Positions 3,369-55,169 of a stretch of DNA of 64,000 nucleotides are shown here, one piece after another (position 1 is the first letter of the stretch; each line of letters starts with the position of its first letter). Under the pieces are notes generated by a model, which was not told the DNA's origin, ran no database searches, and worked only from the letters and a program-made list of their open reading frames with translations. Source of the stretch: an uncultured Gammaproteobacteria bacterium (GTDB lineage Bacteria > Patescibacteriota > Microgenomatia > UBA10105 > UBA927); assembly GCA_964629685.1 (NCBI GenBank), contig CAZVTT010000002.1, forward strand, positions 51,468 through 115,467, read 5' to 3'. The position numbers and the translations under genes are program-made.

Positions 3369-3776
3369 ATGGTAAAAGATACGTCGTGCGTTTTTTGTAA
3401 GATTGTCGCGGGGGCTGCACCTGCGCATATTGTCTACGAGGATGCTTTCACTATCGCTTTTTTGGATAAATATCCACGGACAAGAGGCCACCTGCAATTA
3501 GTGCCGAAACAGCATTATCGTTGGATCTATGAGCTTCCGGATATGGGAGCGTTCTTCACTACCTCGCAACGGATTATCCGTGGTATAATACCGGTATTAA
3601 GAGCGGATCATGTTACGCTCTCGAGTTTCGGACACGAAGTTACACACGCGCATCTGTGGATAGTCCCGCAGTACGCCGAACGGGTGACGGTATCCGAAAG
3701 ATCGAGGCAAAGTAACGGTTCCGATCAAGAGCAAATAGCGCAAATTCTGCGAAATGAATTTTTAAAGGGGGTGTAG
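3369..3776 (+). CDS. HIT-family (histidine triad) nucleotide hydrolase/transferase
   Basis: Histidine triad HEVTHAHLWIVPQ (HxHxHxx); N-terminal CxxC. Confidence 0.85.
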   Translation: MVKDTSCVFCKIVAGAAPAHIVYEDAFTIAFLDKYPRTRGHLQLVPKQHYRWIYELPDMGAFFTTSQRIIRGIIPVLRADHVTLSSFGHEVTHAHLWIVPQYAERVTVSERSRQSNGSDQEQIAQILRNEFLKGV

Positions 3777-3785
3777 TTTTACTGT

Positions 3786-3974
3786 ATGGTGGTTGTAAAA
3801 GCACAACCGGGCGATTCTTCCGATGCATTAATCCGGAAGTTTACTCGGAAAGTATTATCTGAAGGAATATTACAGGACTTGAAAAAGAAAGAGTTTTATC
3901 AGAAACCAGCTGAAGTTCGAAAAGAAAAACGACGTGAACTTGAGCGACGTTTGCGGCATCCGAATCGACCGTAA
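3786..3974 (+). CDS. rpsU: 30S ribosomal protein S21
   Basis: 62 aa; KFTRKVLSEGILQDLKKKEFYQKPAEVRKEKRR is typical of S21. Confidence 0.85.
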   Translation: MVVVKAQPGDSSDALIRKFTRKVLSEGILQDLKKKEFYQKPAEVRKEKRRELERRLRHPNRP

Positions 3975-54074: not shown

Positions 54075-54794
54075 TTACAGACCACTCTGGAGCATGGCTT
54101 CTGTTACTTTCTGCATTTTGCCTTCCATAATATCCTCCAGATTGTGCCATGATTTATTGATCCGGTGATCCGTAACACGGTTTTGCGGGTAGTTATACGT
54201 TCTGATTTTTTCCGCCCGCATGCCTTTGCCGATAACACTGCGGCTGTCGCTTAACGTTTGTGAATTCTTTATTTCTTCCGCTTCCCAGAGTTTTGCCCGC
54301 AACATAGACAAAGCTACTTGTCGGTTCTGGAATTGATCCCGTTCGTTGCTGCAGCTCACTACGATACCCGTTGGTTTATGACGCAGGCGTACTGCCGAGC
54401 TGACTTTGTTTACATTCTGGCCGCCGTGACCACCAGCACGATGAAAATCCCATTCCAGATCCTCGTTACGGATGTTAATATCCGTCTCCGGAATTTCCGG
54501 GAGTACCGCTACTGTAGCTGTGGATGTGTGAATCCGCCCCTGTCTTTCCGTGGTGGGTATCCGTTGCACGCGGTGTGTGCCTGCTTCATACTGTAGTTTT
54601 GTGAATACTTCGGGACCCTTTATCCTGATAGCAGTTTCGCTTACTGTACTGACTTTCCAGCCGTTAATGTTGGCATAGCGGTTATACATACGGAGTAGAT
54701 CATCAGCCCAGATTTTAGCTTCCTCACCACCGGGACCTGCTCTAAACTCAAGTATGGCAACATCGGTATTCATAGGATAGTTGTACGCAGACAC
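54075..54794 (-). CDS. prfA: class I peptide chain release factor, RF1-like, lacking N-terminal domain 1 (239 aa)
   Basis: GGQ motif (AGGHGGQNVNKV); RF1-type tripeptide region RVQRIPTTERQGRIHTS (PxT = PTT); RTYNYPQNRVTDHRI. GTG start, in frame with rpmE 12 nt upstream. Confidence 0.75.
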   Translation of the reverse strand: MSAYNYPMNTDVAILEFRAGPGGEEAKIWADDLLRMYNRYANINGWKVSTVSETAIRIKGPEVFTKLQYEAGTHRVQRIPTTERQGRIHTSTATVAVLPEIPETDINIRNEDLEWDFHRAGGHGGQNVNKVSSAVRLRHKPTGIVVSCSNERDQFQNRQVALSMLRAKLWEAEEIKNSQTLSDSRSVIGKGMRAEKIRTYNYPQNRVTDHRINKSWHNLEDIMEGKMQKVTEAMLQSGL

Positions 54795-54806
54795 GCCAAA
54801 GGAAAT

Positions 54807-55115
54807 CTACTTGGCACCCATGAGCATGTCTTTGAGGGATCGCGGATTACGCAGCTGTTCCTGTCGTTCGACCTTTTTCTTTTTCTTTTCGGCTAGTTTC
54901 CCGGCTAATTCTACAGCCTGCTTTTGTTTCTGTACGAAGCGGTCTACGCGGCCCAAGGCATCAACGAATTTCATTTCGCCGGTATAGAACGGGTGGCAAT
55001 TTGCACAAATTTCTACTTTAATTTCCGGTTTGGTAGCACCCAGAGTAAATACTGCGCCACAGGCACAGGCAACTCGTGCTTCCGGATACCATTGAGGATG
55101 TACGCCCTGTTTCAT
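54807..55115 (-). CDS. rpmE: 50S ribosomal protein L31 with Lys-rich C-terminal extension
   Basis: HPQWYPEARVACACGAVFTLGATKPEIKVEICANCHPFYTGE...GRVDRF. Ends with a TAG stop that is in frame with the RF1-like gene. Confidence 0.85.
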   Translation of the reverse strand: MKQGVHPQWYPEARVACACGAVFTLGATKPEIKVEICANCHPFYTGEMKFVDALGRVDRFVQKQKQAVELAGKLAEKKKKKVERQEQLRNPRSLKDMLMGAK

Positions 55116-55169
55116 AGACTACGATTATAGCACATTATTTATATATTGTGGAGTATAGGGTAAAGTCGG

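Follow-up and report, generated by a model that had tools for sequence, protein, structure and literature searches.

The rpmE-prfA locus

We analyzed a 64-kb stretch of DNA (the window; all coordinates refer to this whole stretch) in which rpmE, the gene for ribosomal protein bL31, lies directly ahead of prfA, a gene for peptide chain release factor 1 (RF1). Both genes are on the minus strand. The source is a Gottesmanbacteria-like member of the Microgenomates, within the Patescibacteria or candidate phyla radiation (CPR), and homologs of the window release factor (RF) are labelled, for instance, Candidatus Gottesmanbacteria or Patescibacteria group. The RF1 encoded here lacks the whole of domain 1, and the stop codon of rpmE is a UAG that shares its frame with prfA. 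The elements of the locus, in the order in which they would be read, are the following.

55124..55152, minus strand: promoter-like site of rpmE-prfA (TCCACA, 17 nt, TGcTATAAT; 10 of 12 matches, with a TG ahead of the -10)
54807..55115, minus strand: rpmE, bL31, 102 amino acids (aa), with Pfam and NCBIfam matches; TAG stop at 54809-54807, followed by A at position +4
54810..54917, minus strand: C-terminal extension of L31, 36 aa, AVELAGKLAEKKKKKVERQEQLRNPRSLKDMLMGAK, beyond the Pfam core
54774..54806, minus strand: rpmE-prfA spacer, 33 nt, in frame and free of stops; it holds a GTG at 54794-54792 and a pyrimidine-rich stretch ahead of the prfA ATG
54075..54773, minus strand: prfA ortholog, RF1 without domain 1, 232 aa, with ATG start and TAA stop (54077-54075); domains 2-4 only

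An earlier reading of this DNA, made from its letters alone (the sequence-only reading), had pointed to the rpmE TAG at 54809-54807 and to an RF1-type open reading frame (ORF) that follows it in the same frame. Both are confirmed. The codons after the TAG are ATT TCC TTT GGC, and the GTG at 54794-54792 then opens a 239-aa ORF in that frame. We compared the locus with 160 RF-anchored loci from genomes and metagenomes and with 13 further loci fetched for close relatives (individual loci are given as L numbers).

A release factor 1 without domain 1

Profile searches identify the second gene as prfA and place the truncation precisely. The RF-1 domain (PF00472) is matched at 4.5e-37 over profile positions 2-116, which is the full domain, and only the second half of the 194-position Pfam PCRF profile (97-194) finds a match. 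The two NCBIfam prfA models gave 329 and 323 bits. Their alignment begins at model position 103-109 (109 of 361), with positions 1-108 absent, and the scores fall below the equivalog cut-offs of 400 and 423 because about 105 residues are missing. Residue 6 of the short RF1 corresponds in the alignment to residue 111 of its E. coli counterpart, and domain 2 contains small deletions relative to Thermotoga RF1. The best 120 database homologs, which are 77-100% identical to the window RF, carry the same two Pfam domains. The window gene is thus a clade-wide prfA ortholog that has lost the whole of domain 1.

The functional motifs of the remaining domains are intact. The tripeptide PTT occupies the PxT position of RF1 (residues 73-75 of the ATG-started protein, 54557-54549). 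It aligns with PVT of Thermotoga RF1 and is of the RF1 type, not the SPF of RF2. The GGQ motif is found at residues 117-119 (54425-54417). In an alignment of 24 homologs, GGQ, P73 and T75 were invariant. By way of PTT the short RF1 should terminate translation at UAA and UAG, and by way of GGQ it should hydrolyse peptidyl-tRNA. The sequence-only reading had called this an RF1-type factor with PTT and GGQ that lacks the entire domain 1, and the profile, PDB and motif evidence agree with it on each count.

Stop codon usage in the window bears on which release factors the source requires. Among 58 long ORFs, TAG ends 7 and TGA ends 4, the latter including typical ATGA overlaps. The use of UAG means that RF1 function is needed, and the use of UGA means that RF2 is presumably encoded elsewhere in the genome, outside the window. 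In line with the earlier statement that no other RF gene is present, a six-frame hidden Markov model (HMM) scan of the 64-kb window found no second RF-like ORF and no free-standing domain 1.

A different role for the short factor would be that of an accessory rescue protein, related to PrfH or ArfB, with a full-length RF1 encoded elsewhere in the genome. PrfH likewise lacks domain 1, close homologs are labelled 'peptide chain release factor-like protein' at NCBI, and the better prfA score remains below its cut-off. However, the RF1 scores lie far above those of the rival families, whose profiles gave 219 (prfB), 67 (PrfH) and 54 bits (ArfB). The PrfH model TIGR03072 reached 66.8 bits against a cut-off of 166.65, and PDB chains scored 208-256 bits for RF1, 135-150 for RF2 and 52.8 for PrfH. 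The factor retains the RF1 PxT motif together with both the PCRF and RF-1 domains, its upstream gene is rpmE and not RtcB, and it sits at a conserved locus that holds full-length or partly shortened RF1 in other Patescibacteria. We therefore regard an accessory role as very unlikely, and the PrfH-like paralog that the sequence-only reading had offered as an alternative is contradicted by both the scores and the locus.

The truncation might also be an artefact or a pseudogene, with domain 1 concealed by a mis-assembly, a frameshift or a wrongly called start. The source is metagenome-derived, and the ORF opens right after an upstream stop. Against this, rpmE fills the upstream DNA, and the 33 nt between the genes cannot hold about 105 codons. 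The same length recurs, strongly conserved, in more than 100 independent assemblies, and a domain-1-like ORF is absent from the whole window. This explanation is effectively refuted.

The sequence-only reading had started the factor at the GTG. That ORF is present, but the homologs range from 230 to 253 aa, with nearly all at 230-236 aa, and the spacer of L164, whose RF is 94% identical to that of the window, contains neither a GTG nor any other in-frame start. Because of the homolog lengths and the lack of conservation of the GTG in L164, the start of prfA is most likely ATG 54773-54771. This gives a 232-aa protein that begins 33 nt (11 codons) past the TAG, in frame with it.

Length classes of RF1 in Patescibacteria

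The arrangement of rpmE and prfA extends well beyond the window. Of 161 RF-anchored sequences (the 160 loci plus the window), 121 have rpmE immediately ahead of the RF1 gene, and loci with full-length RF1 are among them. Within the group, rpmE-prfA is the standard location of prfA. Three length classes of RF1 occupy this locus. Over the 119 loci where rpmE precedes prfA and a prfA start was assigned, RF1 was about 345 aa long (full length) in 9, about 300 aa in 77 and about 232 aa in 33. The 300-aa class begins near model position 50-70. The 232-aa class comprises records labelled Gottesman-, Woese-, Ames-, Roizman-, Shapiro- and Blackburnbacteria. The presence of three length classes indicates that domain 1 eroded stepwise, and probably repeatedly.

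Some loci depart from this picture. One subclade of the short class has rpmE on the downstream side of prfA (L035, L037, L066, L067, L069, L071, L073, L122, L145, L148, L155 and L157). At L056, a 67-aa RF-like ORF fragment (3704-3904) directly follows prfA and matches model positions 304-346; it may reflect a frameshift, a sequencing error or a partial duplication.

L31 and its C-terminal tail

The product of rpmE is a long-tailed bL31. Pfam PF01197 matched residues 1-63 at 2.9e-25 (88.7 bits against a cut-off of 27), the NCBIfam L31 equivalog NF000612 gave 87.1 bits against a cut-off of 70, and the cysteine motifs of L31 are present (CAC...CANC). A Lys-rich tail of 36 aa continues past the Pfam core and ends in the Patescibacteria-wide motif P-K/R-S/T-L-R/K-E/D-M-L. 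Most of the 121 loci in which rpmE precedes prfA keep both the tail and the motif, and bL31 has been described as enlarged in CPR bacteria (PMC9297842). The sequence-only reading was thus right that a Lys-rich tail runs up to the UAG, but the tail is typical of the lineage and not unusual.

We considered whether the tail could be a captured piece of RF1 domain 1, such that read-through of the UAG would rebuild an RF1 of full size. The hhalign probability for this relationship was 0.1%, and lineages with full-length RF1 have the tail as well. This idea was rejected.

Transcription and translation of the operon

The gene order hisS-EamA-rpmE-prfA-htrA-ctpA is common to the window and its nearest relatives. 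The promoter-like site ahead of rpmE is of the extended -10 type. Its -10 hexamer ends just 8 nt short of the rpmE ATG, so the mRNA would have little or no leader. We found no promoter-like or terminator-like site between rpmE and prfA. The putative rpmE-prfA transcript is probably bicistronic and of the leaderless type.

A Shine-Dalgarno (SD)-like motif precedes neither the GTG nor the ATG candidate start of prfA. The sequence-only reading had remarked on this absence, which is real but typical of the genome: just 20 of 71 window ORFs have an SD-like motif. The missing SD at prfA is not special because SD-less starts are the norm in the window. A TATAAT- or TATACT-like box stands 6-9 nt ahead of many window starts (for example 4965, 12174, 22968, 28233, 31305 and 46995 (-)). 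This distribution suggests that leaderless or near-leaderless mRNAs are widespread in the source genome. The window contains no tRNA genes, and hence no nearby suppressor tRNA.

The best account of these features is an ordinary bicistronic rpmE-prfA operon in which the lineage's housekeeping RF1 lacks domain 1 and the UAG is the stop codon of rpmE. We hold this to be probably correct. Transcription would start from the extended -10 promoter just ahead of rpmE and yield a leaderless mRNA. The long-tailed bL31 would be its first product, and an RF1 made of domains 2-4 its second. Translation of RF1 from ATG 54773, which has no SD, could begin either with SD-independent initiation de novo or when ribosomes that have just terminated at the rpmE stop, 33 nt upstream, initiate again. 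The short RF1 would act at UAA and UAG like any RF1 but would lack the part of the protein that contacts RF3 and the L11 stalk.

The junction in the window and its nearest relatives

The sequence-only reading had likened the in-frame UAG to the autoregulation of prfB and had proposed that its conservation and spacing be compared in related genomes. On its own, the junction in the window is unremarkable. The chance of one in-frame UAG junction is about 4% (TAG in 7/58 ORFs, multiplied by 1/3 for the frame), which alone is not significant. We compared the junction among 11 Gottesmanbacteria-like lineages, the window included, whose RF is at least 81% identical to that of the window. The junctions are listed by decreasing RF identity ('clean' means without a further stop in the spacer).

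Window: rpmE stop TAG, spacer 33 nt, in frame, clean
L164 (RF 94% identical): TAG, 33 nt, in frame, clean
L166 (91%): TAG, 76 nt, out of frame
L001 (89%): TAA, 51 nt, in frame, second stop in spacer
L168 (88%): TGA, 63 nt, in frame, second stop in spacer
L173 (87%): TAA, 11 nt, out of frame
L170 (84%): TAG, 75 nt, in frame, clean
L171 (83%): TAA, 10 nt, out of frame
L172 (82%): TAA, 133 nt, out of frame
L081 (82%): TAG, 6 nt, in frame, clean
L002 (81%): TAA, 107 nt, out of frame

The rpmE stop in these lineages is TAG in 5, TAA in 5 and TGA in 1, the spacers range from 6 to 133 nt (about 20-fold), and all three frames occur. Since the stop, the frame and the spacing all vary among the nearest relatives, an obligatory prfB-like device is not supported in the clade of the window. 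The sequence-only reading had itself regarded such variation as grounds for calling the in-frame UAG coincidental.

The spacer itself shows little sign of constraint. Between the window and L164 (54774-54806 and L164:1066-1098) the spacers are 52% identical, which compares with 46-62% at third codon positions, and the coding regions are 84% and 78% identical. The 33-nt length and the TAG are kept between these two lineages while the spacer sequence drifts. No RNA structure was found at the junction, where the fold is less stable than that of shuffled sequences (z = +1.48), and a search of the junction against Rfam gave no match at E values up to 1.

Some observations weigh against the ordinary-operon account. 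The 5/11 share of TAG in the nearest lineages exceeds both the 12% of the window (p = 0.006) and the 18.5% background of the loci (p = 0.04) in binomial tests that are uncorrected for relatedness. A clean in-frame UAG occurs in 4/11 of these lineages, and 'pure coincidence' is not proven. An AlphaFold model of the short RF1, built on a shallow alignment, had a mean pLDDT of 62.7 and was not used. Even so, the UAG in the window is most likely an ordinary rpmE stop, with a frame match to prfA that is incidental or a relaxed remnant.

A UAG bias in lineages with longer RF1

A different pattern emerged in lineages whose RF1 is about 300-345 aa long. At the 86 loci of this kind, rpmE ends in TAG in 66, in TAA in 20 and in TGA in none (the 86 loci include L033, L044, L048, L050 and L053). 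L033 and L044 are examples with UAG-C and an in-frame spacer of 15 nt. TAG ends 18.5% of the long ORFs in the same loci and the upstream gene in 14 of 101 control pairs of closely spaced genes. As a synonymous control we took conserved Lys, Glu and Gln codons of rpmE and prfA in the same lineages, which offer 24 two-fold A/G sites. The G share at the rpmE stop was 0.77, and at the control sites it was 0.10-0.47, with a mean of 0.27. The base after the stop is C at 54 of the 86 loci and A at 25; the background has 18% C and 37% T. A C in this position is the classic weak context for termination, as in the UGA-C of prfB (PMC12421855). The RF1 gene's own stop is TAG at only 1 of the 86 loci.

Common descent alone does not account for this bias. 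The four-fold sites within the conserved LREML motif are randomised (A24 C20 G17 T16), and because these sites are saturated the TAG bias is not mere inheritance from an ancestor with TAG. TAG is still the stop in about 21 of 39 clusters after single-linkage clustering at 70% identity.

The reading frame is biased as well. Of 119 junctions, 67 place rpmE and prfA in one frame. For spacers of 0-33 nt, frame 0 was found in 40/64 junctions and in 42/101 control pairs (Fisher p = 0.007), and typical spacers are 0, 9, 12, 15 and 18 nt long. The domain-1-less class as a whole shows none of the stop codon bias. Its rpmE stop is TAG in 8/33, with a G share of 0.26 against the control mean of 0.27, and there is no bias at position +4.

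These data bear on an alternative to the ordinary operon, in which RF1 regulates its own synthesis. The rpmE stop (UAG with C or A after it), placed directly ahead of prfA, would serve as an intentionally weak signal specific to RF1, and scarcity of RF1 would raise RF1 output by one of two routes. In the first, read-through would yield an L31-spacer-RF1 fusion, which in the window would be 346 aa long with the junction ...DMLMGAK-X-ISFGVSAYNYPMNTDVAILEFR, where X is Gln, Tyr, Lys or Trp. In the second, a ribosome dwelling on the UAG would keep the prfA start accessible. The excess of TAG and of +4 C in the longer-RF1 lineages, the failure of inheritance alone to explain it, the near absence of TAG from the end of the RF1 gene and the frame 0 excess in short spacers speak for such feedback. 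The low TAG count in control upstream genes points the same way, as do the 12 loci where rpmE is not upstream of prfA: its stop is TAA in 11/11 readable cases, and in L148 rpmE runs off the locus end. The window itself, with UAG-A, a shared frame and a stop-free spacer, would suit the model.

Other observations argue against feedback. The junction varies among the nearest relatives of the window, and the class to which the window belongs has no TAG excess. The spacer in the window evolves neutrally and is unstructured. TAG is as frequent where the genes are out of frame or far apart (20/25 out-of-frame junctions with spacers above 30 nt), and since the enrichment is equal out of frame, a fusion is not the general explanation. 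Moreover, prfA has its own ATG at every locus, and a fused L31-RF1 ORF occurs in 0/121 loci. In many out-of-frame or long-spacer junctions there seems to be a separate promoter for prfA or a large hairpin. Plain coupling of termination to re-initiation would give positive feedback, which has the wrong sign. Where the spacer is very short, the frame match may be mere inertia, because start and stop codons shift in steps of whole codons, and the 11 controls with rpmE elsewhere all come from one short-class subclade. Finally, RF1 feedback has not been demonstrated in any bacterium (PMC7530605, PMC12421855). On balance we consider feedback an unlikely explanation of the junction in the window, though clearly a stronger contender than an accessory role for the factor.

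Variants of the feedback model fared no better. In a relay model, read-through ribosomes in out-of-frame lineages would stop at the prfA start. The next stop fell within -27..+6 of that start in 14/32 junctions, compared with 8/32 and 11/32 in the two other frames, a difference that is not significant. In a second model, hairpins in long spacers would be unmasked, but where these hairpins lie with respect to the stop and the start varies without any regular pattern. Both models were rejected.

The UAG-C bias at the level of the clade is real in our data and resembles what selection for a weak stop read by RF1 would produce. One specific form of this idea is that an rpmE stop 0-33 nt ahead of prfA, often in frame with it, has been selected as the weakest RF1-specific signal (UAG-C) and is an RF1 sensor in much of Patescibacteria, that the UAG-A in the window is a working or decaying copy of it, and that relaxation of the sensor accompanies loss of domain 1. 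We regard this as a tentative proposal and an unlikely one. For the prfB-like autoregulation put forward by the sequence-only reading, the variable junction in the nearest relatives tells against it in the window, while the UAG-C bias and the in-frame short spacers of the longer-RF1 lineages keep the idea live for the wider clade; in the clade of the window such a device would at best be relaxed. The literature searched contains no description of a UAG bias at the rpmE-prfA junction or of regulation through a UAG between these genes.

Long spacers have a feature of their own. They often contain very long, AT-rich, near-perfect hairpins with a recurring atttcaaat/atttgaaat element (L036, L052, L125, L046, L032, L105 and L130), and 16 of 45 long spacers fold at z below -2. 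These hairpins could be palindromic inserts, terminators or regulatory structures.

Comparison with known release factors and regulatory systems

To our knowledge, domain 1 is regarded as universal in bacterial RF1 and RF2. The window factor shares with canonical RF1 its domains 2, 3 and 4, its PxT and GGQ motifs, its best profile and PDB matches and a locus beside rpmE. It differs in the absence of domain 1, about 105 residues that contact RF3 and the L11 stalk in the canonical factor. Domain 1 contacts RF3 and is dispensable for codon recognition and hydrolysis, E. coli RF1 without its N-terminal domain works in vivo, and prfC is missing from small genomes (PMC1586002). RF3 is absent from 72 of 191 genomes (PMC1780047). 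Loss of domain 1 is therefore plausible in a reduced genome without RF3, and the source genome is presumably of this kind.

The closest precedent is a truncated E. coli RF1 with the same architecture, RF1 minus domain 1 (Mora et al. 2003, as recounted in PMC1586002). The truncated protein reportedly recognises the same codons, is active in peptide release in vitro and sustains growth, but RF3 cannot recycle it (PMC1586002). That construct was made in the laboratory, whereas the truncation in the window is natural, fixed in a clade, affects an apparent housekeeping factor and is known from sequence. We found no description of a natural housekeeping RF1 without domain 1 in the literature searched. 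If the assignment is right, this RF1 offers a natural experiment on the role of domain 1 in RF3 recycling and L11 contact, and it bears on how far the termination machinery can shrink.

PrfH and ArfB/ICT1 are class I RF homologs that likewise have no domain 1. Translational coupling to the preceding gene has been suggested for PrfH. Its codon-recognition region has diverged and it always occurs with RtcB2, whereas the gene upstream of the window factor is rpmE. ArfB consists of a GGQ domain and a tail only; the window factor keeps its codon-reading region.

RF2 is famously autoregulated. The prfB frameshift site resembles the window junction in that a weak-context, RF-specific stop lies 5' of RF coding sequence (UGA-C in prfB, UAG-A in the window and UAG-C in many relatives). 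It differs in having an internal stop, a slippery CUU U, an upstream SD and a change of frame, none of which is present at the window junction. Unlike the stop in prfB, the stop in the window is the natural end of another gene, in an arrangement that is not conserved in the nearest relatives. A second parallel is hemA-UAG-prfA of enteric bacteria, where the gene upstream of prfA also ends in UAG, though the upstream gene and the phylum are different. RF1 feedback by read-through was proposed for that junction by Elliott in 1989, but according to PMC7530605 it was never shown there.

A UAG-C sensor, if it exists, would be the first natural RF1 autoregulatory circuit and the counterpart of the UGA-C site of prfB, and the UAG-C bias gives the question of RF1 feedback a concrete, testable sequence element. 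Cultivated Saccharibacteria may serve as an experimental system. If neither the loss of domain 1 nor the sensor holds, the locus is a normal operon of a ribosomal protein and a release factor in a reduced genome.

The comparison set contained two further points of note. An uncultured Saccharimonadales metagenome-assembled genome (MAG), L072, has UAG-C at its rpmE-prfA junction. Numerous public MAG records (L001-L003, L006, L011, L012 and many others) bear the title 'uncultured Gammaproteobacteria' or 'Pseudomonadales bacterium', although their gene content clearly marks them as Patescibacteria; these titles are probably mislabelled taxonomy.

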